Source of the DNA: Candidatus Multivoradales bacterium
GTDB taxonomy: Bacteria > Acidobacteriota > Thermoanaerobaculia > Multivoradales > J023
Assembly (NCBI GenBank): GCA_965248925.1
Contig: CBDFLE010000005.1
Location: 1,888,001 to 1,952,000, forward strand
Reading direction: 5' to 3'
Length of the DNA: 64,000 nt
Below are positions 20,592-38,772 of this stretch, in pieces (positions within the stretch are counted from its first letter, which is position 1; every line of letters begins with the position of its first letter). Position numbers and translations under genes: made by a program. Under the pieces are notes generated by a model that saw only the letters and a program-made list of their open reading frames with translations, was not told the DNA's origin and did not search any database.

Positions 20592-22901
<2,310 letters not shown>

Positions 22902-22911
22902 TCAGACAGCT

Positions 22912-23355
22912 CTACTCTCCTCCATCTGGCGCCGCTTTCTGGCACGCCGGGCAGCGCCCCCAGTAGATGACCTCCGCTTCGTCGATCTCGAAACCGTGAT
23001 CATCGTCGGCGATCAGGCAGGGCGCCACCCCGTGCGCGCAGTCGATGTCAAACGTCGTGTCGCAGCCGCGGCAGATCAGGTGATGATGATTGTCACCCAC
23101 TCGATCCTCGTACCGGGCCGCAGATCCCGCCGGTTGGATACGGCGCACCAAGTTCTTCTCGACCAGGACACCGAGGGTGTCATAGACCGCCTGGCGGGAA
23201 ATCGACCCGATCACCGCCCGGACGACATCGATCAACTCGTCGGCCCGAGCATGGGGATGAGACGACACCGCTCGCAGGATGGCCAACCGTTGAGCCGTCA
23301 CCTGCAGACCGTGCTGACGCAGGAGCTGCTCGACATCGTCTTGCATGGCGGGCAT
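22912..23355 (-). CDS. furA: FurA/PerR-like peroxide-sensing Fur-family regulator
   Basis: [33 protein letters not shown]; directly upstream of katG; start 23355 or 23346. Confidence 0.9.
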
Positions 23356-23365
23356 ATGATCACGG

Positions 23366-23386
23366 ATTCTGGACTGAGTCAAGTAT
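23366..23386 (-). promoter_or_regulatory. FurA operator overlapping a TTGACT -35 element
   Basis: Minus strand ATACTTGACTCAGTCCAGAAT, imperfect palindrome CTTGACT-C-AGTCCAG just upstream of furA. Confidence 0.6.
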
Positions 23387-23506
23387 TTGATTGAGCCTAG
23401 AATCTGGCTCGGTCTTAGCCCCGGCTCTGGGGCGCTCTGTTGGCAGCGTGGCTGTGAGCAGCGTGCGAGACGCCTAGCAGTTGCCGCGGGATTCCTCAAC
23501 GTCCCG

Positions 23507-23532
23507 ACAACCTTTTCAGCAACGCCGAGTCT
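23507..23532 (+). promoter_or_regulatory. putative ECF promoter, copy 1
   Basis: ACAACC-TTTTCAGCAACGCCGA-GTCT. Confidence 0.7.
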
Positions 23533-23685
23533 CCCCTTCCAGAGGACATTCGAGATTCACCCTGTGCTTTTCATTGCACAGGTGTCATTTCCCGAACGGC
23601 ACGACTGGACCCTAAACTATGGGATGGAGTCCAACCGATGACGTGGCAGGACCTCGACCACTGAGAACCAATAAGGAGAACCGCC

Positions 23686-24012
23686 GTGAGCGCGAAATTC
23701 GAGATCTTCAAGGGGAACGACCAGAAACACTATTTCCGCTACCTTGGCAATTCCGGATCTCAGATCTTGCGCAGCGAGGCCTACGAAGAGCGGGCAGGAG
23801 CTGTCAACGGGATCAACTCGGTCAAGGCAAACTCGCAGCGCGACTCTGCATTTCAGCGCCACACCAATCAGGCAGGGCGCTTCTACTTCAACTTGGTTGC
23901 CGGCAACCACCAGATCATTGCCACGAGCAACCCCTACCGCAATACCAGTGAAAGGACAAAGGCGATCAGCGACGTCAAGAGTCACGCCGCCAACGCCCCG
24001 ACCGAAGATTGA
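23686..24012 (+). CDS. YegP-like protein (tandem DUF1508)
   Basis: KFEIFKG..YFRY..NSGSQILRSEAY and FYFNLVAGNHQIIATS repeats; AAGGAG RBS. Confidence 0.88.
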   Translation: MSAKFEIFKGNDQKHYFRYLGNSGSQILRSEAYEERAGAVNGINSVKANSQRDSAFQRHTNQAGRFYFNLVAGNHQIIATSNPYRNTSERTKAISDVKSHAANAPTED

Positions 24013-24034
24013 CCGCCGACTACGAATTCTAGGC

Positions 24035-24730
24035 ATGGGAGGTGACTTGCAAGCGCCACTGAATTCGCAAGTAGCAACCGAGTTGCTATCATCTCAAGCC
24101 TGGACTCGGGAAAAATCGTCCGAGACCACTTCGAGAAAGGGAAAGAATATCCGCTCAAGCTCGCAAGTCATCTCCGGGCAACAGCAAGTCGAGGTTCTTT
24201 TCCGGCAATACTATGGCCGGGTCAAGGGTTTTTTCCGCCGTCGCGGGTGCGATGAGGAAGAAGCCAAAGAACTTGTTCAGACGGTTTTCCTGAGAGCCTC
24301 CCGCGGGCATTCGCGACTCCGCGATCCGACGGCGGAAGCGGGTTGGATGTTCACCATCGCCGGCAACGTGTGGCGCTCTCATATTCGCGATCGGAGAGCC
24401 GAAAAACGCGACGCTACCGAAGTCGCGCTCCAGGGCATGGACGACCAGGGCGAGGGGTTGATCGCCGAGCAAGGCCTAACCACTCTTGATGAGGGCCCAT
24501 TGCACGCCTTGCTGGGCAAGGAACGTCAGCTAGAGCTGCACCGGGCGATCTCCGAGCTACCACCGCAGATGCGAGCTTGCTTGGAACTCCGGGTCGGCCA
24601 AGATCGCAAGTATCGCGAGATTGCTCAGATCCTCGGAGTCAGCGAGAGCACGGTTAAAACCCAGATCTTTCACGCCAAATTCAAGCTAAAAAAGTACCTC
24701 GTACAGGTTTTCGGCGGCAATCAAGCATGA
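24035..24730 (+). CDS. ECF RNA polymerase sigma factor
   Basis: Region 2 EAKELVQTVF..WMFTIAGN; region 4 LPPQMRACL..YREIAQILGVSESTVKTQIFHAK; start uncertain. Confidence 0.9.
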   Translation: MGGDLQAPLNSQVATELLSSQAWTREKSSETTSRKGKNIRSSSQVISGQQQVEVLFRQYYGRVKGFFRRRGCDEEEAKELVQTVFLRASRGHSRLRDPTAEAGWMFTIAGNVWRSHIRDRRAEKRDATEVALQGMDDQGEGLIAEQGLTTLDEGPLHALLGKERQLELHRAISELPPQMRACLELRVGQDRKYREIAQILGVSESTVKTQIFHAKFKLKKYLVQVFGGNQA

Positions 24731-25530
24731 TCGACCTCAACCCGCTCCAGGCTCTATTGGCCTCGCTCTCGGAAGGCGAAAAGCGCCAGGGAAAAGCCGC
24801 GACGATCACCCTGGAGGATCTGGTTGCCTATCGTCAAGGCCAGCTCACACCGGCCAAGGCCAGAGCTGTGGAAAGAGCAATGGCGATGGATCGTCGATGG
24901 GCGGATTTGATGCTCGAGCTGGCCCACTTCGAAGAAGAGCAGACGGGCCTCCCCGAGCCCTTTCTCGGCACCGACGAGGTCGACCGGGAGTGGCGAACTC
25001 TGGAAGCCCGACTAGAGAACGCTCCCCGGCTCGACACCCGTGTTCACCGGTTCGTCAATCGCCGGCCGCTATTGTCGCTCGCCGCATCGCTGGCTGCCGG
25101 GGCCGGCCTGATGTGGCTGGTGCTGTGGAGTACGGCGGCGATCTCTCCTCTGCGGTCTGACCACCGAACCAGTGTCATCACGCTGTCACCGAGCGTCCAA
25201 GCAGAGCCATCGAAGCGCTCCACTCGCCCCGAGATCGAAAGGATCAGTCTGCCGGCAGACACCACTCAGCTTTTCTTTGAAGTCCGCCCCTCGCGGTTGA
25301 TCCGTAACGCCATCTTTAGCTACCAGATCACCCTCGGCGACAAAGTCATCCGGTACGGCGACGCCTGGAGCGAAGGCAGCCATTTCATCACCTTCTTGAT
25401 CGACCGTCGCGGCCTGGTCAATGGGGCGCGGTACCGCTTGCGGATCACCACCATGCGCGGCGAGCCGATGGTCGAAACCGAATTCGTGCTCGGGCCCAAG
25501 ACGACCTCCCACCGGGCCGACGAGAGGTAA
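24727..25530 (+). CDS. putative membrane-bound anti-sigma factor
   Basis: ATGA-coupled to sigma; degenerate anti-sigma domain (LVAYRQGQLT), TM LSLAASLAAGAGLMWLVLW, beta-rich C-terminus. Confidence 0.7.
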   Translation: MIDLNPLQALLASLSEGEKRQGKAATITLEDLVAYRQGQLTPAKARAVERAMAMDRRWADLMLELAHFEEEQTGLPEPFLGTDEVDREWRTLEARLENAPRLDTRVHRFVNRRPLLSLAASLAAGAGLMWLVLWSTAAISPLRSDHRTSVITLSPSVQAEPSKRSTRPEIERISLPADTTQLFFEVRPSRLIRNAIFSYQITLGDKVIRYGDAWSEGSHFITFLIDRRGLVNGARYRLRITTMRGEPMVETEFVLGPKTTSHRADER

Positions 25531-25533
25531 GAA

Positions 25534-28149
25534 GTGGCCACCCGGCAGCGATTCGGTCGATGGGCGGCACTCTCAGGACTGCTCACCCTCGGTCTGACCC
25601 TCGCCTGCGACCCACCCCGAACCGGCTACCCACCGATTCCGCCGGCAAAAGCCGCGGCACAGCCACGAGAAAACCTGCTCATCGAGCTGACGAAGGGCTT
25701 CAAGCCCTGCCGGCCGGGCAGCGTCGAGGCGCTGAAGATCCATCGCGACGCCAGGAGTGCGGGAGACGATCTACACCACCTCGCCTACCACCACGAAGCA
25801 GCCGCGGAGCGGTTGCAGGCCCTCGGCTTTCCCTGCTTGGCAGTCGACAACTTGAATCGTCAAGGTCAAGCGCTGCGAAAGCTACGAAAGGTAGATCAAG
25901 CGCGCCATCTCTACTTGCGCCAGGCCTTGCCAGAGGCCCGTTCGGCCGGATTCGTTCGCGGCGCCGCTCAGACCTTGAACAATCTAGCTGTGCTCGAGCG
26001 TGGGGGACGCAACCTGCGCCAAGCATTGGACTATTTTCAGGCTGCCTCATATCTCTTCGCTTACTTGGACGACCGCCGGCAATGGACTCTGGTGCAGCTC
26101 AACCTGGGCGAAATGGAGTTCCGGCTCGGGCGTTTAGCAGCGGCTCACGCTCGGCTCGAGTCCGCCGCCGAGCGTTTTCGCCAAGCAGCTGACGACCGCT
26201 ACCTGGCCGCGGCCCTAACCTGGCTCGGCCGCACAGAGATCGCCCTGGGGCTGACCGACTCGGATGACCGCTATCGCCGTTTGGCTATAACCCGGCTGCG
26301 CGAAGCGGTTGGGTTGCGCCGTCGAGCCGACAGCGGACCGCTAGCCCTCGGCACTTCTCTGGACGGGTTGGGAAGAGCTTTCCTGGAGGATCGTCAGTAC
26401 CGCGAGGCGGAAAGTGCTTTGCAAGAAGCTGAGCTGTTGTTCAGCTCCCTGCAGGCCGACTTCTCTACCGCCAACGTGCAGGTCAATCTGGCGGCAGTGC
26501 GGCTGGGCCAAGCACTCCCGGCCGAGGCTCTGGCGCTGGTCGACGGAGTACTCGGCCAACCGGCGCCGACGCGGCTCGGCCTGGCGGAATGGAATGTTCG
26601 CAACGAAGCCCTGCTGATCAATGCCAGGGCACAGCTCTCCCTGGGCAACCGGGACCTCGCCAGCGTGGCGCTCGGGCAGGCGATCGCCCTCTTCGAGGTC
26701 CTGCGCACTGACAACGGGAGCTTGATGGACTCAGCTCTGGCGCTTCGCAAGCCCGCTGTCGATCTCTACCTCGAATTGTTGATCGACGATCGACGGTGGC
26801 CGGAAGCCTTTGACCTCATTGAGCTTCATCGTGCCCGCAGCCTGTTGGATCGCCTGCTGTTCTCTCCCCGCGAAGTGCTGCTCAGGTCTGGTGCGCCCCA
26901 GCTGCTGGCGCAATACGAAGAACTGCGAGCCGACCTGCTCCAGCTGGCAGCGACCTTGCCGGAGCCTCGCAGCGACCCTGTGCAACACCTCGACCTTGAG
27001 CTACGACAGTTACTCCACCGGCTACTGGCAATTGAAGAAGAGATCCGCGAGAAAGCCCAGATGCGCTCAGCGACACCGCTGCGTCGTCATCAGGCTGAGG
27101 ATCTGCTCGTGCCGGGGAGCTTGTTCGTTGGCTACTGGCTGGGCGCTCAACGCAGCTGGGTCTTTATCCTTGAGCATGGGCGAGAAGATCAAGTGCTGGA
27201 ACTGTCGGTTTCCCGCAGCCTGATCGAGTCTTCTGTCGAGGAGCTGCGGCGCGAACTCGCACGCGGCAACGGCTCCTCACGGCGGGCGAAGAACGAAGCT
27301 AGCTTTCTATCTTCACGGCTCCTGGAACCAATCGCCGAACGCTTAATAGGGGCCGAGAGACTGGTGCTGCTGGTCGACGGCCCGCTCATGGCACTTCCAT
27401 ATGCGGCCCTTCCATCGCCACTCAAAGGCGACACTCTCCTGGTCGATTCGCTACCGTTGGTGAAGATCTCCTCGGTCTCGACCTTGATGGTGCTGCGCCA
27501 ACGGCAGGCGGCCCGACGGCACGAGCAGAAACACCACCTGACGATCTTCTCCGACCCGAGTTACGACCTCGAAAACTCCTGGCCGCGGATCGAGGGAACT
27601 CGCCAGGAGGCCGAGTCCATTCGCCGCTTCTTCCCCACCGACCGGGTCTATCTGGGAAGTGCTGCCAGCCGCGAGAATCTGCTGGCCGGAGTCGCCAGCG
27701 ATAGTCGGTGGATCCATATCGCCAGCCACGGCACCCTTGACGTCAACCACCCTGAGCTTTCTCGTCTGCGTTTGGCGACTCTCGACGAGCATGGCCACGC
27801 TATCGATGGCAGGCTGCACTTGACGGATCTGAACCAACTCCGGCTCTCGGCCTCGCTGGTGGTGCTTTCGGGCTGCGAAACGGCCATCGGTCAACCTCTC
27901 AGAGGCAGCGGGCCGCTGGCCTTCCCGAGTGCTTTTCTCTACGCCGGCGCGGCGGGCGTGATCGCCAGTCTGTGGCCGGTCGACGATCAGGCGACCGTCG
28001 CTCTAATGACAGAGCTCTACCGTGGCCTGGGCGCAGGTCTCGATCCACCGCGGGCTCTGCAACAAGCGCAGCGGTCGATGTCGCGGGGCAAATACTACGA
28101 CCCGGCCTACTGGGCTGCCTGGGCCTTCGTTGGTGATTGGCAAGGTTGA
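25534..28149 (+). CDS. TPR-CHAT protease, predicted lipoprotein
   Basis: Lipobox LTLA-C, TPR repeats, HIASHG and LSGCET catalytic motifs, ASLWPVDD, YWAAW. Confidence 0.92.
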   Translation: MATRQRFGRWAALSGLLTLGLTLACDPPRTGYPPIPPAKAAAQPRENLLIELTKGFKPCRPGSVEALKIHRDARSAGDDLHHLAYHHEAAAERLQALGFPCLAVDNLNRQGQALRKLRKVDQARHLYLRQALPEARSAGFVRGAAQTLNNLAVLERGGRNLRQALDYFQAASYLFAYLDDRRQWTLVQLNLGEMEFRLGRLAAAHARLESAAERFRQAADDRYLAAALTWLGRTEIALGLTDSDDRYRRLAITRLREAVGLRRRADSGPLALGTSLDGLGRAFLEDRQYREAESALQEAELLFSSLQADFSTANVQVNLAAVRLGQALPAEALALVDGVLGQPAPTRLGLAEWNVRNEALLINARAQLSLGNRDLASVALGQAIALFEVLRTDNGSLMDSALALRKPAVDLYLELLIDDRRWPEAFDLIELHRARSLLDRLLFSPREVLLRSGAPQLLAQYEELRADLLQLAATLPEPRSDPVQHLDLELRQLLHRLLAIEEEIREKAQMRSATPLRRHQAEDLLVPGSLFVGYWLGAQRSWVFILEHGREDQVLELSVSRSLIESSVEELRRELARGNGSSRRAKNEASFLSSRLLEPIAERLIGAERLVLLVDGPLMALPYAALPSPLKGDTLLVDSLPLVKISSVSTLMVLRQRQAARRHEQKHHLTIFSDPSYDLENSWPRIEGTRQEAESIRRFFPTDRVYLGSAASRENLLAGVASDSRWIHIASHGTLDVNHPELSRLRLATLDEHGHAIDGRLHLTDLNQLRLSASLVVLSGCETAIGQPLRGSGPLAFPSAFLYAGAAGVIASLWPVDDQATVALMTELYRGLGAGLDPPRALQQAQRSMSRGKYYDPAYWAAWAFVGDWQG

Positions 28150-28175
28150 ACAACCTTTTTACCGCCGCCGCGTCT
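28150..28175 (+). promoter_or_regulatory. putative ECF promoter, copy 2
   Basis: ACAACC-TTTTTACCGCCGCCGC-GTCT. Confidence 0.7.
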
Positions 28176-28263
28176 TCCCTTCATTGCACTTCGACAAGTT
28201 ACCAAGATAGACCAGCGCTAGCTCGGGCCTAGTCGGCCCATGCCAAGCCAAAGGGAGACTTCA

Positions 28264-28410
28264 ATGAGTCACGCGAAAGAATTCTGGCCGCTCTGCGACA
28301 ACCTGGGGAATTCGCCACCTGACACCGGCTCGGGTGATCCCGACGACGATGGTGGCGGAACCGACATTGCGGACGACCCCAAAGCCGGAAGCTTTGAAGG
28401 CGAGGAGTGA
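28264..28410 (+). CDS. 48-aa acidic Asp/Gly-rich peptide
   Basis: AAGGGAG RBS; MSHAKEFWPLCDNLGNSPPDTGSGDPDDDGGGTDIADDPKAGSFEGEE. Confidence 0.55.
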   Translation: MSHAKEFWPLCDNLGNSPPDTGSGDPDDDGGGTDIADDPKAGSFEGEE

Positions 28411-28470
28411 ATGAAACCTGCCCCACTATCCACGGCGGATGGCGGGGTGCTGCCTCCCACTGATGCATGA
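28411..28470 (+). CDS. 19-aa peptide coupled to the C25-like gene
   Basis: GAGGAG RBS; MKPAPLSTADGGVLPPTDA; ATGA overlap with next gene. Confidence 0.35.
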   Translation: MKPAPLSTADGGVLPPTDA

Positions 28471-29849
28471 ACCGCCGGCTGCATTTTCTCGGCCTGGACG
28501 TCGACACCGGCCAGCCTTTCTTTACCGGACTCAACAGCCACGGACTGCCCAATTCCCGGCTTTCTCTAGCGGCCCAACCAAGACCTCTGCGCTACGGTGT
28601 AGACAGTCGATTCCTTGCCACTGCGGGCTGGGGAATCGTCTTTTGCCCAGGTGTGGATCCAGCGATCAAGCGGGCACTCCGGCCGCTGATCGAACGTCGG
28701 CGGCAGCAGGCTGGCAAGCTGTTCAAAGAACTCACCTACAAGGTCCGCAGAAGCGCGGGCAGCTTTCTCTCATCCTTGCGTGCCGGCCCCGGGCCGGTCG
28801 ACCCTAACCGGGTTCCCTACTACTTGTTGCTGATCGGCCACCCGCGCGAGTTACCGTACGGTTTCGAAATCGAACTCGGCTGCCAGCATGCCGTCGGCCG
28901 CCTTGCCTTTCACCAACCAGCGGCTTACGAGAGCTACGTTCGAGCCCTATTGAGCGCCGAAAGCGAGCAGCTCCATCGCGGCGCGGCGATCAAACTTTTC
29001 GCACCGAGCCATCCCCATGACGAGGCGACCCGAGCCTGCCGTCGCCAGCTGATCGATCCCCTACGGCAAGCTCTGCGACAACGTCGACCGAACCTACTCA
29101 GGCGGAGCTTTCTTGGCCGGCACGCGAGCCGTGGACAGCTAGTCAAGGTGCTGGCCGACCGCGCCACCAACCTGGTGCTGGTCGCCGGCCATGCCTCGAT
29201 GATTCGCACCGATGCTGACCGCCAGCGAGCACGCCAGGGCTCTCTGGTGTGCTCCGATTGGCCGGGCCATGGCACCAGAGTCCTGCCCGAGCACACCGTA
29301 GGTGCAGACGCTCTGTCAGCGGCCGCCGACCTCAGCGGCACCGTTTTCGTGTTGTTCGGCTGCTTCACCGCTGGCACGCCCAGTCACGACAGTTTCTCCC
29401 ATCTCGACCGCGACCCCGGCAGGCGGCGGCGCCTCACCGAGCATCCCTTCGTTGCCCGGTTGCCACAGGCCTTGCTCAGCCATCGGCCGGGTGCCGCCCT
29501 GGCGGTGATCGGTCACGTCGATCGCGCCTGGCCGAGCTCTTTCGAGTGGCAGGGGATCGCTCAGGCAAATGCTTTCGAAGACTTCCTGCTGGCAGCCGCC
29601 GATGGTCGCCGCATCGGCTTCGCGATGCAGGGGTTCAAGCAGCGTTATGTCGATCTGGCGCGGCGGCTGGCGACCGCGACCCACCGCCCCGGCGACAGTA
29701 CCGAACTCGATCTACCCGCTCCGCGGGAACTCTGGCTAGCCTACAATGACGCTCGCTCCTTTGTCTTGCTCGGCGATCCAGCAGCACGATTGTCGATCTC
29801 TGCTGCCACAGCCGGCGAGCGGGCAATGCGCAACCCGACGTCGGAGTAG
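28467..29849 (+). CDS. peptidase C25 (gingipain)-like clan CD cysteine protease
   Basis: VPYYLLLIG, AVGRL, AGH and FGCFTAG dyad motifs, VIGHVDRAW, LLGDPA. Confidence 0.78.
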   Translation: MNRRLHFLGLDVDTGQPFFTGLNSHGLPNSRLSLAAQPRPLRYGVDSRFLATAGWGIVFCPGVDPAIKRALRPLIERRRQQAGKLFKELTYKVRRSAGSFLSSLRAGPGPVDPNRVPYYLLLIGHPRELPYGFEIELGCQHAVGRLAFHQPAAYESYVRALLSAESEQLHRGAAIKLFAPSHPHDEATRACRRQLIDPLRQALRQRRPNLLRRSFLGRHASRGQLVKVLADRATNLVLVAGHASMIRTDADRQRARQGSLVCSDWPGHGTRVLPEHTVGADALSAAADLSGTVFVLFGCFTAGTPSHDSFSHLDRDPGRRRRLTEHPFVARLPQALLSHRPGAALAVIGHVDRAWPSSFEWQGIAQANAFEDFLLAAADGRRIGFAMQGFKQRYVDLARRLATATHRPGDSTELDLPAPRELWLAYNDARSFVLLGDPAARLSISAATAGERAMRNPTSE

Positions 29850-31777
29850 TGGGTCGTCAGAGATCGCCGAGATCGGCTCGCAGCGCGGCAGTTCCGCTGG
29901 CTGGACCTAAAGCCACCACCGCGCAACATCGGCCTCGACGGGCCCTCGTCGCCTCGCTCCAATGCCCACTCCCAAAGGTTACCGCGCAAGTCGAAAAAGC
30001 CCAGCGGCCCAGGCTTGAAGCTGGCCACCGGCGCCACACGCTCGAAGCCATCCTCGCCACTGAGGGAGCGGCAGTTGGCATGCTTCTCAAGCCACTCGGG
30101 CTCTTTCTCGAGGACCACGTCGAGACCACCAGCGGCCCCGGCGGCCCATTCCAGCTCGGCCTCGCTGGGGATCCGAAATGGCTCCCCGTCGACCCTTTCG
30201 TTCAACCGTTTGACGAAGGCCAGAACCTCGGCCCAGTTGACGCTGCTAACGGGTCGCTCGCCGGGCGCAGTGACCGGATCACCGGGCTCGCCGCTCATGA
30301 CTACCTTCCATTGGCGCTCCAGGAGCTCGGTGCGTGCCAAGCAAAAGCCCTCCAACACCTTCCCCTGTGCCGGATCAGCGGGGACAAAGATGAATTCGAG
30401 CCCGATCTCCAGCATCGTAGGGCAACGAGGGTCCTCCGCAGCTGCGCTAGGCGGCGGTTGCCCGGCGTTGGCTATCAAGCCCAGTTGCACAGTGTCAGAT
30501 CCAACTTCGAAGACTGTCAGATAGGACCACAGCAGAAGCCCAACCGCGGTCAAGACAGCCGCTGACCAGCGCGTCGGCGAGGCATGCAAGAAGCGGCCGA
30601 GAACAGAGAATCTGCGCCCATTGGAGGCGATACTCCGAGGTCGTCCGAGAGCCGTCTCGAAGTCCAATGCAACCGCACCCTGGTAGAGAATCGGCAACGC
30701 CCAGGCCCGGTCGGCGACCCTTGAGAAATAACGCCCTCGAGCCTCCGCTACCGCAGCTTCGATCGACCGAGTCGATGCCAGAGACTGATAGAACTGCGAC
30801 GAGAACTCCAGCGCCGCCCGGTCCTGGATCACCGAACGAATTGCCAGCACCGCGGGAACGCCCTGTCGTAGAAGACTCTGTGCCAGGCCGGAGAAAGTAT
30901 CCGAGTCCGATTGCCTACCTGCTTCGCAAGCATTGAGATAGAGCAGCCGGATGGAAGGATGGCGGTCCAACACGGCACCGAGACGCTCCGCACCGACCGC
31001 GTCTCTCTTTCCCGAGCGGGATTCGAACAGCAGACAACCACTGCGGTCGGTGATCGAGAACGAGCCATGACCTATGAAGTGCAAGAGGTAGTAACTCTTG
31101 CTCGTCAGACGCTCGGCCAAGTTGTCGATCGACGCATGGTTGAGCAGATCTAGCTCAACCTGCCCGGTCTCGCACAAAGGCGCCAAGGCCTCCTCGATTC
31201 GCCGCGTCTCACATTCCACGTTGAGCTCCGGCACCCCTTCTGGGCTGGCGCTGATCACCAAGATTCGCAAGGGGGGCTCGGACTGCAGCCGCGGCCGTCG
31301 CTTCGACACCTCCAGGTGGCGGACGATCGAGATCCCGTCTTGAACTGCCAAGAACTGTCCATGGTCCGAGTCGAAAAGCGCTTCCCAGGGCCAATCCCCC
31401 ATCTGCGGAACGTCGGTCATCCGCAGCCGTAGGCGGATACCAATCTTCATCCGCCGCTCCGCGGAGCGCTCGGCGGCAATCCGCCGGCTGATCTCGAAAT
31501 GGACCCGAACCTTGCCGCGCAGAACCCGCTCGTACAATCTCTCGCCCGCTTGGCGAAAAGGCAGTCGACGATGTCGACTCGGCCGTAGTACGTCTCTTGA
31601 TGTTGCTTCGACAATTGGTGGCGAACGGTCATGCTCCCCCGGCTCATTGGCAAGCAAAACGAGTTCAGGAGCATCGAACTAGACCATCGCCCCCTGGCCA
31701 GCCGGCGAGTCGAGTACGCGCGCCCGGTAACGATCTTGATGCCGATCGATCAGCAGGTCGAAGTCTAAATAGCGCAT
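29741..31777 (-). pseudogene. CHAT + TM + FGE-sulfatase domain protein with in-frame TAG at codon 33
   Basis: MRYLDFDLLID..RARVLDSPAGQ then TAG (31679-31681), same frame continues to PWEAL, HFIGHG, LNACE, PSEAELEWA, DLRGNLWEW. Confidence 0.8.
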
Positions 31778-31779
31778 GA

Positions 31780-31884
31780 TTAGGGCGGGTCCTGAACTGC
31801 ACCAGCCAGCGGCCGCCACTCCCACGGCGGAACCGGCTTCGCTCGGCGCCGCAGGCGGAGCAGCTTCCTCGCAGCAATTCTCAT
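31780..31884 (-). CDS. 34-aa basic peptide upstream of CHAT-FGE
   Basis: GGAGG 5 nt before ATG; MRIAARKLLRLRRRAKPVPPWEWRPLAGAVQDPP; stop 2 nt before next ATG. Confidence 0.4.
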   Translation of the reverse strand: MRIAARKLLRLRRRAKPVPPWEWRPLAGAVQDPP

Positions 31885-31919
31885 CCAAACCTCCATCGAC
31901 GTTGTGGTTGACCGGGGGA

Positions 31920-31945
31920 AGACCCGAGCCCAGGCAAATTGTTGA
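31920..31945 (-). promoter_or_regulatory. putative ECF promoter, degenerate divergent copy
   Basis: TCAACA-ATTTGCCTGGGCTCGG-GTCT, same 16-nt spacer. Confidence 0.4.
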
Positions 31946-31952
31946 GCGTTGG

Positions 31953-31978
31953 ACAACCTTTTCTCACTAGCCGAGTCT
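31953..31978 (+). promoter_or_regulatory. putative ECF promoter, copy 3
   Basis: ACAACC-TTTTCTCACTAGCCGA-GTCT. Confidence 0.7.
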
Positions 31979-32026
31979 CTAGAAGTGATTGCCCAGGACT
32001 CCCAGTCAACGAGAGAGGAACAAGTA

Positions 32027-32290
32027 ATGGCAGACCGCGAGGTCACCGCGACCGAAAAAGACTCGAACAACATCATCAAGGCCTTGTGTAATGCTGCGGT
32101 TTTCCCACAGCCGATCTCCAAGGCGCAAGCGATCGCCGACATTGATAGCGGAATACATCGCTACTTCGTCGAGTGGCCAGACGGGGTCAAGACCTGGATT
32201 CGAACAGTTCCCGGCTCCAGCGGCAAATACCTCAGAACCGACAAGGACAACACCACCAGCAACAATCTGCTCGATCTCCCAGATTGTTGA
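32027..32290 (+). CDS. DUF3892 family protein
   Basis: GAGG RBS; C-terminal GKYLRTDKDNTTSNNLLDLPDC. Confidence 0.85.
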   Translation: MADREVTATEKDSNNIIKALCNAAVFPQPISKAQAIADIDSGIHRYFVEWPDGVKTWIRTVPGSSGKYLRTDKDNTTSNNLLDLPDC

Positions 32291-34212
32291 AGTCAACCAC
32301 CGATCAGAATGGCGCTCGGCGGGCGCTGGTTGTCGGCATCGATCACTATCCGCAGCTCGGTGACCCGGCCCAGCTGCGAGGCGCAGTTCACGACGCCGAG
32401 CAGATGGCTGATCTCCTCGAGCACCGATTCGGCTTCCCACATCGCGATCTGTGCCTGCTGAAGAACTCGGAGGCGACCCGCGAACGTTTGACGGCAGAGA
32501 TGGAAGCTCTGGTAGCGCGGGCCCAGCCGACCGACACCACCGTCTTTCACTGGAGCGGGCACGGCTCCCAGGTAGTCGACCTTGAAGGGGACGAACCGGA
32601 TGGCCTGGATGAGACTCTGGTGCCGGTGGACGGCCGCCTGCTGCATCAAGAACCGGCCGACCTGCGAGATGACGAGATTCGCTCTTGGCTAGCGCGCCTC
32701 GAGAGTCACGGCTCTGCGGTGACCTTGATCGTCGACTGCTGTCACTCGGGCCACATTCACCGACACAGCTCATTGAGACCGCGCTATCTGCCTGCATTCA
32801 AGCGCGCCGCGCAAACCTTCCCTGGCCCACCCACCCCTCGTCCCGTGGCCGACCCGTGGCAGTCGCGCCCCAGCCACTACGTTCTTCTCGCCGCCTGCGG
32901 TGAAGACCAGCTGGCTTGGGAAAGGCCGGTCGGCCGTGGACAGTTTCACGGCCACTGGACCTGGGCTATTCTGCGAACTCTAGCCAGAGCGGATCACGGC
33001 GCGACAGCCGCGGAAATCTTCGAGTTCTCCCGCGCCTGCCTGCGGAGCGAAAATCCCCAGCAAGAACCGGTTCTGGTGGGCCAACGAGATCGCTTGCTCT
33101 TCGGTTGTCGAGCACGCCCCTGCCGCCGTTTCCTCTTCGTCGACTCCTGGAACTCCAGCACCCAGACTGGCAGGCTGCGCGGTGGTGCCGTGCAAGGCCT
33201 CGGCGAGGGTTCAATCTGGACTCTTCATCCGCCGGCCAAACACCAGGCTCAGTCGTTGCTGGGCCGCGCCAGAATCCGCCGGGTCGGCGCCTTACGCTCG
33301 ACTTTCGAGGCCGCTCTTCTTCCCAACAGTCGCCCTCCCAGGCCTGGAGATCGGGCCTTCGAAAGAACAGTGGCCTACTGCCAACCCCGCCTCCGGGTCC
33401 AGGTGGATTCATGTTCAGTCGGGGCCGATCGCCTGCGGGCAGCCGTTGCAGCGTCTCCTCTGCTACGTCTCGGCGGTCGCGATGAGATCCACGACTCCGA
33501 CCAGCTGCACCTGCGGCTGGACGAGGGACCTGGCGGTCTCTGCTGGTGGATAGTCGATCTGCGGGGCCAATCCCTGGCAGCACCCCGGCCTCGGGAGGAA
33601 CCCGGTGTCAACGGCGCCTTGGTCAGGCGTCTCGAACGTCGCGCTCGCTGTCGCAACGTGCTGGCATTAGAATGCAAAAATCCGCCGCCTTCATGGGCAC
33701 AGGCAATTTCGCTCCGCCTCCTCGATCTCGAAACCCGCCAACCAAAGTGTGATTTCTTGGACGGCGCCCGATTTGTAATCGAGATCGAAAATCAGCATAG
33801 CGAGGATCTTTATATCTCACTGCTGGATCTCGGCAGCAGCGACCGAGTCTCGCTGCTTCACCCCGACCCTGGAAGCGACGAGTTGCTGGCCCCGGACCTA
33901 CCCATGCGCATCGGCCACCTTGCTGGCGATCCGCTGATCGCTAGCCGGCCAGGGGATCTCTATCCACGAAGTCTCAACCCGGCAGTCAGCCATTTAAAGC
34001 TCTTCGCCACCACCTCCCCAGTCGATCTGAGCTGGCTCTCCACCGATCGGCCGTGGCGTTCACCCAACCCAGCGCCTCTAACCTGCGGCCAGTCTTCACT
34101 CGAAGGATTGTTGGCCCGAACCACGGCCGTTTGGGTAAACCGGGGTGCCGGTGAAGAATGGACTGCCGTGTCGATCCCTCTGCGAGCCTTCGGCCGCCAC
34201 CCCCCGCATTAG
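32287..34212 (+). CDS. caspase-like peptidase C14 with C-terminal DUF4384-like domain
   Basis: RRALVVGIDHY, WSGHGSQ, DCCHSG, QEP; TTG start overlapping DUF3892 stop (start inferred). Confidence 0.88.
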   Translation: MKSTTDQNGARRALVVGIDHYPQLGDPAQLRGAVHDAEQMADLLEHRFGFPHRDLCLLKNSEATRERLTAEMEALVARAQPTDTTVFHWSGHGSQVVDLEGDEPDGLDETLVPVDGRLLHQEPADLRDDEIRSWLARLESHGSAVTLIVDCCHSGHIHRHSSLRPRYLPAFKRAAQTFPGPPTPRPVADPWQSRPSHYVLLAACGEDQLAWERPVGRGQFHGHWTWAILRTLARADHGATAAEIFEFSRACLRSENPQQEPVLVGQRDRLLFGCRARPCRRFLFVDSWNSSTQTGRLRGGAVQGLGEGSIWTLHPPAKHQAQSLLGRARIRRVGALRSTFEAALLPNSRPPRPGDRAFERTVAYCQPRLRVQVDSCSVGADRLRAAVAASPLLRLGGRDEIHDSDQLHLRLDEGPGGLCWWIVDLRGQSLAAPRPREEPGVNGALVRRLERRARCRNVLALECKNPPPSWAQAISLRLLDLETRQPKCDFLDGARFVIEIENQHSEDLYISLLDLGSSDRVSLLHPDPGSDELLAPDLPMRIGHLAGDPLIASRPGDLYPRSLNPAVSHLKLFATTSPVDLSWLSTDRPWRSPNPAPLTCGQSSLEGLLARTTAVWVNRGAGEEWTAVSIPLRAFGRHPPH

Positions 34213-34257
34213 CAGAACTTCCGCCAAAACCGATACCGCCCCACCAACTTCAGCCCG

Positions 34258-34572
34258 CTAGGTCGTACTCTCGGCCTCCAATTCAATCTCGTTCGCCGCA
34301 AATATCTTAATGATCGGAGCCTCCGCAGCAAGCGCCACCAGAGCTTTGACAAAGGCCACCGAAGCGGGAACCTTGAAGTGCTCCCGAAGCGCCTGCGGAT
34401 CGGTCCATTCCTCGATAAACACCAGGCGCTGAGGATTCTCCGCGTCCACATGAGCAGCGTGGGACAGGCACCCCGGTTCTTTTCGCGAACGCACCACATG
34501 TTCGCGACACAGAGCGAGCATCTCAGCAACGCGATCCTCTTGAGCAACAACACTACCAAGAACTATGATCAT
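34258..34572 (-). CDS. ABM-family (putative quinol) monooxygenase
   Basis: SRKEPGCLSH, FIEEWTDPQALREHF. Confidence 0.88.
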   Translation of the reverse strand: MIIVLGSVVAQEDRVAEMLALCREHVVRSRKEPGCLSHAAHVDAENPQRLVFIEEWTDPQALREHFKVPASVAFVKALVALAAEAPIIKIFAANEIELEAESTT

Positions 34573-34716
34573 CTCTGGCCTCCGAAATCAGCGCGCGAAT
34601 GACACTCTCACCGAGGGATTCTCCAAGGTTGCGCTGGCCCCGATTCTGCGTCCATCACATCCGGCCTGCGGCGCACTTTCGTTGCCCAGATCCTACCCCG
34701 GTAGCTCGCCAAAATT

Positions 34717-37083
34717 TCATCCATCGGTGTGCAGCCGCTCGGCCCCGCCGGCAGAGATCACCAGCGCGAAATCCTGCGGCCCCCGCGGCACATCACTGGC
34801 GACTACTCGCACAGTCCAAACTCCAAGATCGGGTTCCTCGACCCGGATGCCCTCGACGTTGTTATCGCCATCGAACATGCCGCCACCGAAGTCGTTACCG
34901 AGGTGGAAACCGCCGTCCGGCGGAATCGCGATCAGGTTGAGATTGTTGATCAGATCCTCACCAGGAAAATCACTGTAGACGAGAGTCAGGCGCAACGGGA
35001 CCGAGCCGTCAGCGACCTTGATACGGAATTCCTGTTGCTGTCCTGAATGAAGAGAGTCACCGTTGACGAACAGTACCTGAATCGGCGCCTCGGGCATCAG
35101 CAAGGTCTGGAGCCGGAGCCGTCCCCAACCCTGCTCGTTGTCGGCCTCAGCCTGCGAGGAAGGGTGGGCGAATCGATAGGGTGTATATCGAGCGGAGTGG
35201 ATGAGCGCGGCTTTGAGTAGGGCCGCTGACGGCTCGGCGACGGTGTTCTCGCGCAGAAATTGCCTGACCAGCGCACAGCAACCGGCCACCAACGGCGTCG
35301 CCATTGATGTACCGCCCATAAACATGTAGTCCAATTTGGCCGCCGCAAAGGCTCCCCAGGCGAAGTTGTTGCTGGCGATCTGCGACGAACGCGTGGAGAG
35401 AATGAAGGTACCGGGCGCGATGACGTCGGGTTTGCGCCGCCCGGTTGTACACGGGCCACGACTACTGAAGGCCACAACATCGTCGACCGAATCCGCGACC
35501 GGATCGGAAGCAAAGGGTCCGTTGGGAAAGTCCTGAAACATATCGCCGTAAGTCCGAGAGCCCGAATCTCCGGGGCGGAAGTTCTCGCAAGCTCCAACAG
35601 TTAGGCAGTTCTTTGCTGTCGCTGGTGAACTGACGCTACCGAGATCGATGCCTTGTCCGCCGCCAGGTGTAGTGTCGGCGCCATCGTTACCGGCCGCAAC
35701 CACCACCAGAAAACCCGGATGGTCAAGTACGAACTGATCCAAGGCTTCGCATTGCTCATCGTACTCACCGGGGCCGCCGCCACCCCAGGAATTGGAGTGA
35801 ATGCGGGCCCCTAGATCGAAGGCCGGCTGGAAGAGATCGCCGAGATCGTCAGGAATGCCAAAAAGTCCGTGCGCTGGCGGCGTCCCACCTTGTTGCAGGA
35901 AAGCTAGCGTACCGTCCATATTCCACTCTGTGGATTGGTCGATCGCCTGAAATACCAGTTCGGCCTCCGGCGCCACCCCTTCGATCGGATCGAGGCCAAG
36001 GGCGCGAGAGCGAGAACCGTTGCCGAGGACGCTACCGCAGACGTGAGTACCGTGCCCGGAGAATCGATCGGCGGCACCGTCATCACTATCTGGGTCTAAC
36101 AGAAACGGAGCCAGAGAGCCGGCGATAGGGAAGCTAGAGATGTCGCGTACCCGGCCGCGGAAATCTGCATGTACGGTCAGGAGATCGCCAGTGTCGAGAC
36201 CGGAATCTGCTACCGCTACAATCTCTCCCGCCCCGGTGAGTCCCAAACCACCAGGGGCTGGCAGCACCGTCGGACCACAGATGACTTCGCGGGCCACATC
36301 ATTGAACAGGCGTCGGACCTTCTTCTCTGTTAGCTTTTTCAGCCCTCTGAGGCTAGCGACAAGATGCAGATCTTCAACCACATTGTCGGTGCCGGCGAGG
36401 TTAATGACCAATCCGGTGGATCCCACCTCGACAACCGGACGCAGTCCCTCACGCCGAAGTTTGTTTCGCGCCCGCCGTCGGTCATCGGCGGTAAGGAAGG
36501 ACGCATTGAGCAAACCACCGAGAGTCGCCCGGCGTAGCGAGCGCCGCGACACGTCGGAGGCTGCCAACCGGTCTGCGGCCCCGGCTACCTCAGCGCCATC
36601 GGCCTTGACAGCAACGTTCTGAAGGAATTCCGGGGAAATCAGGATGCTGGGTACAAAGGGAGTAACTTTCTCGACGCCTTCCAGACGTTGGACGCGGGCA
36701 CGGCTGGCTTTGTTCGGGCACCTGACGGCAACCGTCGAATTGCCGATGGTAGCCAGCAGACGGCATCCCGCCGAGTTGAGACGCACCTCATGATCCGCCG
36801 GAATTGGCGGCGCGAAGCGCACGGCGACTATGTACGGACCCCGCTCCCGCCCGCCCCCCATCGCTGCTGCTAGTCCAGCCACTTCTGGAAAACTTGGCGG
36901 CGGCGACGCAGTAGACAACTCCTCCACTGGATACCTCGCCCGCAGATCGCCCAGCGCCTCCTCCGTTCCATGGACAACCATGTAGGCTGGGTACCGCGTT
37001 TCGATCTCGGCACCATCAGGCAGCTCGACCACATCGGTCTCTGAGCAGTAGATTCTGAATCGGAAAGTCTCTCGATTCGGCAT
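34717..37083 (-). CDS. S8 subtilisin-family serine protease (KP-43-like), no signal peptide
   Basis: VAVADSG, GHGTHVCG, AAGN, GGTSMATP; C-terminal beta domain NNVE. Confidence 0.93.
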   Translation of the reverse strand: MPNRETFRFRIYCSETDVVELPDGAEIETRYPAYMVVHGTEEALGDLRARYPVEELSTASPPPSFPEVAGLAAAMGGGRERGPYIVAVRFAPPIPADHEVRLNSAGCRLLATIGNSTVAVRCPNKASRARVQRLEGVEKVTPFVPSILISPEFLQNVAVKADGAEVAGAADRLAASDVSRRSLRRATLGGLLNASFLTADDRRRARNKLRREGLRPVVEVGSTGLVINLAGTDNVVEDLHLVASLRGLKKLTEKKVRRLFNDVAREVICGPTVLPAPGGLGLTGAGEIVAVADSGLDTGDLLTVHADFRGRVRDISSFPIAGSLAPFLLDPDSDDGAADRFSGHGTHVCGSVLGNGSRSRALGLDPIEGVAPEAELVFQAIDQSTEWNMDGTLAFLQQGGTPPAHGLFGIPDDLGDLFQPAFDLGARIHSNSWGGGGPGEYDEQCEALDQFVLDHPGFLVVVAAGNDGADTTPGGGQGIDLGSVSSPATAKNCLTVGACENFRPGDSGSRTYGDMFQDFPNGPFASDPVADSVDDVVAFSSRGPCTTGRRKPDVIAPGTFILSTRSSQIASNNFAWGAFAAAKLDYMFMGGTSMATPLVAGCCALVRQFLRENTVAEPSAALLKAALIHSARYTPYRFAHPSSQAEADNEQGWGRLRLQTLLMPEAPIQVLFVNGDSLHSGQQQEFRIKVADGSVPLRLTLVYSDFPGEDLINNLNLIAIPPDGGFHLGNDFGGGMFDGDNNVEGIRVEEPDLGVWTVRVVASDVPRGPQDFALVISAGGAERLHTDG

Positions 37084-37334
37084 GTCAGTCTCCAAGTAGG
37101 TATCTCTTCACGGGGACGATTCGCAATCGCTTTGGCCATCACGACCATTTAGGACAGCGCGAACCGGCGCTGAATTCTACCTTGGGTTCACCGAGACACC
37201 GTCCGCTCGGACTACGTCGGTCAGACTCCACTCAAACTGATCGACCTCAAGATGGAGGACATCGAGCACGGCATCCAGCTGCCTGTCCATCGCTAACACC
37301 TTATCCCAGGTATTGTCAGCGGTCTACGTCTCGA

Positions 37335-37808
37335 ATGAAGGAGTGCATCGGCGACCTGATCTTGCCGATCGCCGCCATCCGCGGCGAGGGCACCTCCAAC
37401 GACTACTTGCCGCAAGAGGTCCCGGCGCTGCCCTCATTCGCCTTGCAAAAAACCATCTCGACGACCTTTCGCGACCACGAGCGCGACTACTGGACCGGCA
37501 CCGTCTACTCGACCAATCGCCGAGTCTGGGAACACGACGACACCTTCAAAAAGTACCTGCGGGAGCTACGAGCCATGGCCGTGGACATGGAGACCGCGAC
37601 CGTCTTCATCGTCGCCTTCGCCAACCAGATACCGGTCGGCGCCCTATTGCTGGTCTCGGATCAACCGATGGTGCCTGAGGGAGTCAAGACGGAAGCGAGC
37701 GACCGCAAAGTGACCGAAGACTTCGTCGATCGCCACTTACAGATCGGCATCGACTCCTTGCGCCAGCTGATCAACTACGGCAATACCGTCAGGCACTTGC
37801 GTTTCTAG
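37335..37808 (+). pseudogene. amn: AMP nucleosidase, 3' fragment only
   Basis: IGDLILPIAAIRGEGTSNDY, TNRRVWEHD, AVDMETAT; N-terminal part absent. Confidence 0.75.
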
Positions 37809-37882
37809 CCACCGCAAGGCCGAATGCCAAGATTGCGCGGCCTCAGTAGATTTAGGGGGTTCTCAGCCCGCTGCTGTCGATT

Positions 37883-38619
37883 CCAGAACTCCTGACATAC
37901 CCTTTTTCTCAAATGTCCGGTTGAGCCTCTCCGGAGGTGTTCCGAGGGCCTGGGAAGGCCAGGCTCCGGGGTGGCGCTGGCTTGATCGCGAACCGCATCC
38001 GTAGCTCGGTGCCGGGGAACTGGGTGGCGGTAGCGTTGAGTTCTTCGCCGACGGCGGCGATCGCCGCCGTTTTGTGGGGAGAGCTGAGCGGGTCGATGGA
38101 GAGGAGCAGCTCAGTGTCGGTAACCTCCATATCGCCGCCGGCCGCGAAAGCGCTTTGGATCAGGGTGCGTCCCTCCTGCTCGCTGCGGCGGTAGTGGGGT
38201 GATAGGAGCCGCAGAAGATCACCTGCGGCCTGGTAGGCAACCATCTTGAGAATATCGCTGAGGTGCTTGCGCTCGACCGACAGCTTGATGACATCCGCTT
38301 CGACGACCTCCTGGACCGGGACGCGGACAGGGAGGGTCGCGCGCTGGTTCTTGAGTTCGGTGATCTGCTCTGTCGCTGCCCGGACCCTGGCGGAGGTTGC
38401 TGCGTTGGCGATCTTGAATCCACGCATCGTAGGCCGCCGATCCTCTCGGTTCTCGAGCGCTGCGATCCCGCAATGGGCCTGGATCTGCTCGAGATGCGCT
38501 TTGGCTTTACGCAACTCTGCGTTGATTTTGCTGCGCTCGGGGTTCGGCACATCGCGGGCAGCGTCTGCCGGCTCGGTGCCGTAGTCCACCAGCGCATCGA
38601 GGGCGAATTGTTCGCGCAG
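37883..38619 (-). mobile_element. IS remnant: C-terminal part of a putative transposase plus probable right end
   Basis: LREQFALDALVDYG..VPNPER..LKMVAYQA; ATGTCAGGAGTTCTG shortly after the stop resembles an IS terminus. Confidence 0.6.
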
Positions 38620-38772
38620 TCGGTTGCCATGCGCTGCGAGCCGAGCAGGTTTTCTAGAAGCCAATATCGCATTCGAAGCCTACAGGAATTCCTCTTTGCG
38701 GCTCTTCGGCCATTCGATCTTCGAGAAGACGGTGGACTTGGCTGAAGTGAGTGCACTCGGAATTTCACCTTG

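Follow-up and report, generated by a model that had tools for sequence, protein, structure and literature searches.

The 64,000-nucleotide stretch of Candidatus Multivoradales bacterium DNA analysed here (the window; positions 1888001-1952000 of contig C5 in genome G000, 7.98 Mb in size) carries a protease locus in which a sigma factor of the extracytoplasmic function (ECF) family, a predicted single-pass anti-sigma factor and a predicted exported TPR-CHAT protease form a real, conserved unit. Specific to this system are a private promoter that ties the sigma factor to a gingipain-fold (C25-like) and a C14 metacaspase-like protease, a partnership of C25-like and CHAT proteins across phyla, and a 13-14-fold paralogous expansion of the sigma/CHAT arrangement. 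The reading favoured here, held with slightly better than even confidence, sees in the locus a module for envelope signalling that is autoregulated and has a regulon of proteases, and in which the CHAT protease would cleave the anti-sigma factor upstream of sigma release.

Bacteria with large genomes encode clan-CD proteases (CHAT, metacaspases, gingipain-like enzymes) in abundance and, to our knowledge, almost nothing is known about the control of these enzymes outside CRISPR and CBASS systems. The locus provides a concrete wiring diagram, with one sigma factor, one promoter signature and three predicted targets, and this wiring joins an envelope-facing CHAT protease to the predicted induction of two intracellular proteases. 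An earlier note, made from the sequence alone, had described the locus as a sigma/anti-sigma module with four caspase-clan proteases and a subtilase; Pfam and NCBIfam scans of the open reading frames (ORFs) in the window recovered every gene that it named, and catalytic motifs are present in all of its clan-CD enzymes and in the S8 subtilase. The sigma operon and the units that share its promoter motif are as follows.

23506..23532, + strand: P1, promoter motif with 0 mismatches, 154 nt 5′ of DUF1508, with which the sigma operon opens
23686..24012, + strand: protein with two tandem DUF1508 domains, 108 aa (Pfam E 7.8e-26), preceded by AAGGAG
24035..24730, + strand: ECF sigma factor, 231 aa (Sigma70_r2 E 5.9e-11, r4_2 E 2e-16)
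24727..25530, + strand: predicted anti-sigma factor, 267 aa, no Pfam hit, one transmembrane (TM) helix; its start overlaps the sigma stop codon
25534..28149, + strand: TPR-CHAT protein, 871 aa (CHAT E 5.1e-57), with a signal peptide and a lipobox-like LTLA followed by C
28149..28175, + strand: P2, promoter motif with 2 mismatches, its first nucleotide coinciding with the final one of the TPR-CHAT stop codon
28240..28470, + strand: two small putative ORFs of 56 and 19 codons (orf56, 28240-28410; the second, 28411-28470), between P2 and the C25-like gene
28467..29849, + strand: C25-like, signal-less gingipain-fold peptidase, 460 aa (PF01364 E 2e-5, 24.5 bits versus a cut-off of 23)
31952..31978, + strand: P3, promoter motif with 0 mismatches, 49 nt 5′ of the DUF3892 ATG
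32027..32290, + strand: DUF3892 protein, 87 aa (Pfam E 6.1e-9)
32287..34212, + strand: C14 metacaspase-like protease, 641 aa from TTG 32287 (E 4.8e-24), within a 679-aa frame at 32173-34212

The catalytic residues are H732/C781 in TPR-CHAT, H242/C299 in the C25-like protein and H130/C189-190 (long-frame numbering) in C14, together with H197/C244 in CHAT-TM-FGE and D297/H348/S597 in S8, two neighbouring proteins considered below. C25-like, C14 and S8 have no signal peptides.

Promoter motif and predicted regulon

The three promoter sites share a 27-nt motif, GACAACCTTTT-N7-GCCGAGTCT, which contains AAC-N17-GTC; AAC and GTC spaced by 17 nt form an ECF-type promoter pattern. When the window was searched with this motif and up to three mismatches allowed, three matches were found (0, 2 and 0 mismatches at 23506, 28149 and 31952), all on the forward strand, against 0.02 expected, and none of 100 shuffles reached three. 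The distances from motif to gene are 154 nt for DUF1508, 65-90 nt for the small ORFs preceding C25-like, and 49 nt for DUF3892. Genome-wide, a looser pattern gave 29 matches, with an exact fit at P1, P2 and P3 only; of the other 26, one deviates at two positions and 25 at three to four, and nowhere else in the 8-Mb genome is the full consensus matched as closely as at these three sites. A fourth motif-like site, at C5:677415 (two deviations, 5′ of a release-factor-3-like gene), was judged probably to be a chance match.

Since the motif stands before the sigma operon, C25-like and DUF3892-C14, these three units constitute the predicted regulon, and the sigma factor very probably induces the C25-like and DUF3892-C14 proteases. 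The proposal of the earlier note that the sigma factor induces further caspase-like enzymes therefore stands for C25-like and DUF3892-C14, where the motif gives strong sequence support, and is unsupported for CHAT-TM-FGE, which has no motif.

Several gene starts within these units were read from the DNA. The sigma frame is open from 23744, with ATG 24035 as its likely start, and the protein scores 83.9 bits (E 9e-24) against the NCBIfam model TIGR02937, whose cut-off is 42.9; sigma factors were called throughout from TIGR02937 matches, a gene caller based on codon usage having mis-called some short genes, including the sigma and Fur-like genes. For DUF3892, ATG 32027, behind GAGAGAGGAA, is a likelier start than TTG 31949. 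The likely C14 start, TTG 32287, overlaps the DUF3892 stop codon (TTGA), suggesting that DUF3892 and C14 are translationally coupled. The stop codon of the 19-codon ORF likewise overlaps the C25-like ATG, and relatives of the two small putative ORFs were not found in the 8-Mb genome or in any of the fetched loci. The start codon of the Fur-like gene on the upstream side of the locus lies 7 nt away from P1.

The sigma, anti-sigma and TPR-CHAT unit

The window genome contains 31 CHAT-domain matches and 102 ECF-sigma matches. For 15 of these CHAT matches, which represent 13-14 paralogous loci, an ECF sigma gene stands on the same strand less than 5 kb upstream, where chance would give about one; a simple hydropathy test showed, at 9 of 14 loci of this kind, a sigma gene followed by a gene for a 240-335-aa single-TM protein and then by a CHAT gene. 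Beyond this genome, a profile of the anti-sigma family found matches at E <= 1e-8 in 93 of 201 genomes of the phylum, a count that includes matches to the anti-sigma domain alone as well as two unpublished genomes, G088 and G189, that were set aside afterwards. The synteny survey of sigma/anti-sigma/CHAT triads that the earlier note had proposed was carried out on the 20 best full-length anti-sigma matches outside the window genome: 19 adjoin a sigma gene, and a strong CHAT gene is present in 15 within a fetched stretch of ~7 kb (8 lie downstream on the same strand, 3 are convergent and 4 lie upstream of sigma). The unit that had been proposed from the window alone is thus conserved, both in the 13-14 paralogous loci and beside 15 of 20 anti-sigma relatives.

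The 267-aa protein is assigned as an anti-sigma factor because the profile of 20 family members matches ChrR (E 1.1e-5), RslA (E 6.6e-5) and the N-terminal domain of DdvA (E 0.0074); by these matches it is a single-pass anti-sigma factor with a class-I (ZAS-type) anti-sigma domain. An HxxxCxxC zinc-ligand motif is found in 16 of the 20 family members, and the window copy has A, D and W at the aligned positions. Its TM helix was predicted at residues 115-134, and an AlphaFold2 (AF2) model (pLDDT 77.9), which places this helix at 113-145, consists of cytoplasmic helices, the TM helix and a periplasmic beta-sandwich at 148-257. In a fold search the sandwich resembled generic cupredoxin and Ig-like folds only. 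A low-confidence loop of the ectodomain, at residues 154-170, contains R164, which is conserved in at least 90% of aligned rows.

The TPR-CHAT protein begins with MATRQRFGRWAALSGLLTLGLTLA followed by C, an N-terminus ending in LTLGLTLA and then C-D, which we take to fit the relaxed lipobox pattern; the protein is predicted to be exported and is probably lipid-anchored. In a comparison of 18 triad TPR-CHATs, of which the window genome and other genomes supplied 9 each, the catalytic pair H732 and C781 is invariant, 15 of 18 N-termini contain a hydrophobic segment, often with a Cys after it, and only 2 of 18 contain a twin-arginine motif. Hits of the TPR-CHAT profile in the PDB were dominated by TPR proteins.

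In the favoured reading, the ECF sigma factor would be held at the inner membrane by the single-pass anti-sigma factor until an envelope or invader-derived cue, sensed via the TPR region, licenses the CHAT protease. TPR-CHAT would then cleave the ectodomain of the anti-sigma factor in trans, with the loop that holds the near-invariant R164 as candidate site; separases and gingipain R cut after Arg. An RseP-type site-2 protease would complete sigma release (there are three matches to the M50, or RseP, family of site-2 proteases in the window genome), and the freed sigma factor would drive P1, P2 and P3, yielding more switch components together with two intracellular clan-CD proteases. Possible roles of CHAT-TM-FGE are the sensing of a second cue or the processing of the induced proteases, and the output would probably be regulated proteolysis for defence or cell death. 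A bolder version of this reading is offered tentatively, as a possibility that falls well short of probable: a two-tier, transcriptionally wired 'caspase cascade' across the inner membrane, operating without CRISPR or a cyclic nucleotide, in which the exported TPR-CHAT would cut the anti-sigma factor at the juxtamembrane Arg, sigma would induce gingipain-fold and metacaspase executioners, and CHAT-TM-FGE would act as a second checkpoint, the circuit committing the cell to defence or death.

TPR-CHAT may instead belong to the output. Sigma and anti-sigma would then answer an envelope cue via ordinary site-1 and site-2 proteases, with TPR-CHAT, C25-like and the caspase making up the regulon of a stress or remodelling response. 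TPR-CHAT is the last gene of an autoregulated operon, and C25-like and C14 share the motif, so that all of them behave as targets; moreover, CHAT is absent from the fetched stretch in 5 of 20 anti-sigma relatives, and loci L041 and L042 have sigma, anti-sigma and C25-like genes with no CHAT gene between. This alternative is nevertheless considered rather unlikely: triad order persists among the 13-14 paralogues and across the phylum, with variable genes downstream, and the fusion of an anti-sigma factor to TPR-CHAT in Myxococcus xanthus (PMC11506125) argues that the two proteins act on each other.

Individual triads also differ in composition. In L041:8818-11209 and L042:8989-11356, both from acidobacterial metagenome-assembled genomes (MAGs), the C25-like gene directly follows the anti-sigma gene. 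Triads T1 and T13 were considered as fused DdvA-like forms and dropped, T13 consisting of sigma, a lipoprotein TPR-CHAT and a TM protein, and T1 lacking a TM segment. The anti-sigma-like frame of T3 (G000:C6:4969526-4969861) has an in-frame TAG and matches profile positions 1-113 only; this anti-sigma gene, which stands beside an intact TPR-CHAT gene and a Ser/Thr kinase gene, may be broken. On the reverse strand at G000:C6:4149374-4152359, three ECF-sigma matches with identical scores, spaced ~1259 nt apart and each with one in-frame TGA, form a tandem triplicated unit. A diversity-generating retroelement adjoins triad T7 (L027; G000:C6:4810000-4828500), comprising a bAvd-like protein, a reverse transcriptase and two FGE-sulfatase-domain proteins (946 and 347 aa), and T7 has an extra BTRD1-repeat protein between anti-sigma and TPR-CHAT. 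Another paralogous triad (L028; G000:C6:289000-308000) lies between cas1-cas2 and genes for CHAT-SAVED, Cas10/Cmr2 and four RAMP proteins, the order being sigma, a 1157-aa TPR-CHAT, CHAT-SAVED and type III-B. Around triad T4, a palindromic repeat (…GGGGTGGCACCCC…) occurs at least three times (L024:300, ~2980 and 9085); it looks like a REP-type element and not a promoter.

The C25-like family and neighbouring proteases

Three C25-like paralogues (33-40% identity) occur in the window genome, each either immediately following a TPR-CHAT gene or lying in frame with it. Reference genomes yielded 304 relatives, the best of them, from an acidobacterial MAG, at 45% identity. All 69 aligned sequences keep the catalytic residues H242 and C299. 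For the AF2 model (pLDDT 89.8, pTM 0.92), the top Foldseek matches were the catalytic domains of the gingipains Kgp and RgpB (~440 columns, E 6e-10 to 8e-7, TM-score ~0.48), followed by separases and the craspase CHAT. A hydrophobic N-terminus is lacking in 85 of 88 relatives, and most N-termini begin FNGIDGxTGxYLLPP. The analysis thereby defines a conserved, signal-less gingipain-fold family with invariant His and Cys that is linked to CHAT in several phyla; no description of it was found in the literature searched, with subscription journals lying outside the coverage.

Neighbours were counted within 10 kb of the C25-like gene, using hidden Markov models built in this analysis, in 80 loci from Acidobacteriota, Myxococcota, Chloroflexota, Cyanobacteria and a few other groups, and separately in the 41 loci whose flanks reach at least 6 kb on either side; the counts, which are probably lower bounds, are given below in that order.

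CHAT near C25-like: 57/80; 38/41
ECF sigma near C25-like: 17/80; 12/41
Full triad near C25-like: 10/80; 8/41
C14 near C25-like: 4/80; 2/41
FGE near C25-like: 2/80; 1/41
S8 near C25-like: 3/80; 3/41
DUF1508 near C25-like: 0/80
DUF3892 near C25-like: 0/80

The C25-like family is thus linked to CHAT genes across several phyla, and a Pfam scan of 108 ORFs from 13 C25-like loci gave the same picture of neighbours, with 0 subtilases. The earlier note had made its proposal depend on co-conservation of the protease genes with sigma; triad order and the C25-like/CHAT pairing are conserved, whereas S8 (3/80), DUF1508 (0/80) and DUF3892 (0/80) are not.

Sigma, anti-sigma, TPR-CHAT and C25-like genes follow one another on one strand in L041, L054, L062, L072, L078, L080 and L082, L041 being also given without the intervening CHAT. 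L072 continues with a C14 gene (684 aa, 34% identity to the window C14 over 633 aa), and C14 stands immediately after C25-like in L043, L072 and L089. In L080, C25-like is followed by one more gene and then by a CHAT-FGE gene (33% identity over 510 aa to that of the window), with a C14 gene upstream; L062 and L082 have a second CHAT gene after C25-like, and in L058, L069 and L100 the triad is convergent on C25-like and CHAT. TPR-CHAT and C25-like share one open frame, with a signal-like hydrophobic segment, in L035:3882-9182 (+ strand, 1766 aa) and L048:6329-11302 (+ strand, 1658 aa); these single frames are either real fusions or the result of lost stop codons.

An alternative is that TPR-CHAT and C25-like are an initiator and its executioner, TPR-CHAT mainly processing the adjacent C25-like zymogen in one compartment and the sigma factor setting expression levels only. 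CHAT lies within 10 kb of C25-like in 57 of 80 loci and 38 of 41 full-flank loci, in several phyla and mostly without sigma; the two single open frames of L035 and L048 point the same way; the start peptide FNGIDGxTGxYLLPP could dock on TPR repeats; and there is precedent for one clan-CD protease activating another (bioRxiv 10.1101/2023.06.23.546230). However, the 85 of 88 non-hydrophobic C25-like N-termini, against 15 of 18 hydrophobic ones among TPR-CHATs, predict opposite sides of the membrane, and co-export is unsupported, with a twin-arginine motif in 2 of 18. Export of C25-like by hitch-hiking on the Tat (twin-arginine) route was likewise considered and found unsupported for that reason. 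An initiator-executioner pair of this kind is regarded as improbable.

Other C25-like loci show further arrangements. The sigma-less locus L034 (G000:C5:1634000-1652000) contains NACHT-HEAT-CHAT (1509 aa, opposite strand), TPR-CHAT (1081 aa) and C25-like genes, followed by genes for a 739-aa CHAT protein that includes an nSTAND-like NTPase and for a TPR protein. Four loci from Myxococcota (L050, L051, L073 and L090) have C25-like clusters of three paralogues, with an ECF sigma gene beside the cluster in L050, L051 and L090. CsgG-like lipoprotein genes lie 3′ of the C25-like/CHAT/C14 genes in L043, L062 and L082, the CsgG-like part in L082 being fused to Trypsin_2 and PEGA domains.

The remaining genes within and around the window locus are listed below.

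20592-23499, both − strand: katG (750 aa) and a Fur-family (PerR-like) regulator, directly upstream of the protease locus
29741..31657, − strand: CHAT-TM-FGE protein, 638 aa (CHAT E 1.2e-32, FGE E 1.6e-18)
34258-34572, − strand: ABM-monooxygenase-like ORF, found in the Pfam scan and absent from the earlier note
34717..37095, − strand: S8 subtilase, signal-less, 792 aa (E 3.6e-45)
37182-38664: truncated PNP_UDP phosphorylase ORF and a Transposase_29 fragment, at the downstream edge of the protease cluster

The katG/Fur-like pair, described as divergent, marks the upstream side of the cluster. On the downstream side, the PNP_UDP ORF covers profile positions 87-227 only, and the Transposase_29 fragment (37909-38664) covers 348-558 of 562.

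CHAT-TM-FGE is convergent with the C25-like gene, the 109-nt overlap falling in the non-conserved tails. Its TM helix (364-383) is preceded by an Arg-rich and followed by an acidic segment, which suggests that the CHAT part is cytoplasmic and that the FGE/C-type-lectin-like domain is outside; FGE/C-type-lectin domains are proposed as ligand sensors in conflict systems (bioRxiv 10.1101/2023.09.22.558884). CHAT-TM-FGE represents a recurrent neighbour type, a second CHAT protein with a variable sensor domain, and is probably expressed independently. The PADLOC model SAVED_CHAT matches it in the CHAT part only (residues 129-303), and PADLOC otherwise returned generic caspase, subtilase and CHAT domain hits only, with no known defence system matched.

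Caspases and subtilases recur beside triads T1, T2, T10 and T13 of the window genome. Five of the eight C14 matches in this genome lie within 10 kb of a triad (random mean 0.27), and of the 19 S8 matches 7 have a CHAT gene within 10 kb (random mean 1.19); none of 5000 simulations reached 5 or 7, respectively. The window's own locus is part of these counts, to which two loci each add two genes. The C-terminal ~380 aa of the window C14 protein gave no match to a known family. The place of the S8 subtilase had been called uncertain from the outset, and this holds: it has no motif, S8 occurs in 3 of 80 related loci, and with no conservation across genomes its membership in the module is doubtful.

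The edges of the cluster bear on a further alternative, namely that independent conflict or defence genes have merely come together in a variable island, with shared control limited to the sigma factor's own operon. The transposase fragment and truncated phosphorylase gene at the downstream edge, the low codon-usage score of the C14 gene, the lack of conservation of S8, DUF1508 and DUF3892 in related loci and the generic PADLOC hits would all fit such an island. Three copies of a 27-nt motif before three units, unmatched in closeness of fit at any other genome site, the recurrence of the gene order in other genomes and the enrichment of C14 genes beside triads in the window genome speak against it, and mere co-location is regarded as very improbable.

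Several observations weigh against the favoured reading, in which TPR-CHAT acts on the anti-sigma factor and the released sigma factor induces the protease regulon. Cleavage of the anti-sigma factor by TPR-CHAT is a step that we infer, and in the M. xanthus counterpart, DdvA, CHAT-mediated cleavage is likewise only proposed (PMC11506125). The window anti-sigma factor has lost the zinc ligands (H, C, C) that 16 of 20 relatives keep, and no CHAT gene was found within the fetched ~7 kb in 5 of 20 anti-sigma-anchored loci. Linkage is weak when anchored on C25-like (sigma 17/80, triad 10/80, C14 4/80, FGE 2/80, S8 3/80). The most conserved pair of all, an exported TPR-CHAT and a signal-less C25-like protein, has its members in opposite predicted compartments; the shared frame and tight pairing suggest a direct partnership, yet the predicted topology forbids it, and a regulatory link alone leaves the pairing without explanation. 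As for the promoter, no comparable motif was found in the regions upstream of CHAT-TM-FGE, ABM and S8 (best sites 7-10 mismatches), nor in related loci, where the only hits among 98 fetched loci had 4 mismatches; a search in 7 related triad loci and the paralogue L025 for a 30-mer common to the region upstream of sigma and the gap between CHAT and C25-like gave nothing convincing; and neither did one in 10 paralogous loci for repeated copies of the sequence upstream of sigma, L024 showing only its palindromic element. The P2/P3 wiring may therefore be lineage-specific, or C25-like may simply be co-transcribed in relatives.

Comparison with known systems

Like the gingipains RgpB and Kgp (MEROPS C25), the C25-like protein has a two-subdomain catalytic fold and a His-Gly ... 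Cys dyad. Unlike them, it shares only ~11% identity, has no signal peptide and, by Pfam, no detected immunoglobulin-like domain or type-IX secretion tail, and its family neighbours CHAT genes (38 of 41 full-flank loci). In the literature on ECF/CHAT and gingipain/CHAT arrangements, only papers on DdvA, on a CRISPR protease and on conflict systems in general were found, most subscription journals lying outside the coverage.

An association of sigma, CHAT and subtilase genes had been noticed earlier in the actinobacterial group ECF54, in which the sigma factor lies near a subtilase and a TPR-CHAT gene, according to the supplement of PMC7826278 (citing Huang et al. 2015). As described there, ECF54 has no recognisable anti-sigma factor and a carboxypeptidase-regulatory-like protein at +1, whereas the window has an anti-sigma factor; no C25-like or C14 genes are reported for the ECF54 context within the part of that supplement that was covered.

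In Haliangium ochraceum, a SAVED-CHAT protein activates the caspase PCaspase, with a sigma factor in the same locus (bioRxiv 10.1101/2023.06.23.546230). The window likewise combines two clan-CD proteases with a sigma factor in one locus and places a sensor-CHAT gene beside a C14 caspase. The Haliangium sensor, however, is SAVED (cA3), whereas those of the window are FGE or TPR, the second CHAT protein carrying a TM helix and FGE; and the Haliangium cascade is post-translational, the caspase cleaving the sigma factor, whereas the predicted link in the window is transcriptional, running from sigma to the protease genes.

The Csx29/Csx30 pair of type III-E CRISPR loci, which the earlier note had taken as its precedent, has given way to a nearer one, the DdvS/DdvA system of M. 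xanthus. The likeness to the type III-E Craspase lies in a TPR-CHAT protease linked to the release of an ECF-like sigma factor (Csx29/Csx30/CASP-sigma). The alignment to Csx29 is weak (E 4e-4 to 6e-3 in the PDB) and confined to the His/Cys region, and the window TPR-CHAT scores 31.8 bits against the NCBIfam Csx29 model NF041237, whose cut-off is 300. Csx29 is cytoplasmic, RNA-guided and gRAMP-bound; in the window, CHAT is predicted to be exported and the anti-sigma factor to be membrane-bound, and no cas genes were found among the ORFs scanned at 19-42 kb, which upholds the suggestion that the locus works independently of CRISPR.

DdvS/DdvA is the closest known system, and the window module is a split form of its design. 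DdvA is a transmembrane anti-sigma factor whose periplasmic part is a TPR-CHAT, and signal-induced CHAT autoproteolysis in trans, followed by RseP, is its authors' proposal; fused DdvA-like proteins were found by these authors only in Myxococcota and one Comamonas species (PMC11506125). DdvS drives four promoters inside its own locus, which contain AAc/cGT elements (PMC6061681). The two systems thus have in common an ECF sigma factor with a single-pass anti-sigma factor whose anti-sigma domain is N-terminal, a periplasmic TPR-CHAT with a conserved His-Cys dyad, and several AAC...GT-type sigma-dependent promoters, predicted in the window, within the locus itself; sequence similarity to DdvA was found for the N-terminal domain only (E 0.0074). 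A CHAT-dependent site-1 step ahead of RseP has been proposed for DdvS/DdvA, and the same is proposed for the window. The layout of the L028 paralogous triad, which has CHAT-SAVED and type III-B genes as neighbours, is very like that of the DdvS island of M. xanthus and that of the SAVED-CHAT locus of Haliangium.

The two systems also differ. The DdvS regulon comprises CBASS and type III-B CRISPR-Cas, whereas the predicted window regulon comprises two intracellular clan-CD proteases. Unlike DdvA, for which CHCC ligands are given, the window anti-sigma factor has no zinc ligands, and its ectodomain is a ~130-aa beta-sandwich only. Finally, TPR-CHAT is encoded in the window by a separate lipoprotein-type gene with its own signal peptide, starting at 25534 behind the anti-sigma stop codon at 25530. 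In this split version of DdvA, protease and anti-sigma factor can be expressed, mutated and mixed apart; with protease and putative substrate encoded by separate genes, the split system would be a tractable model for the trans-cleavage hypothesised in DdvA.

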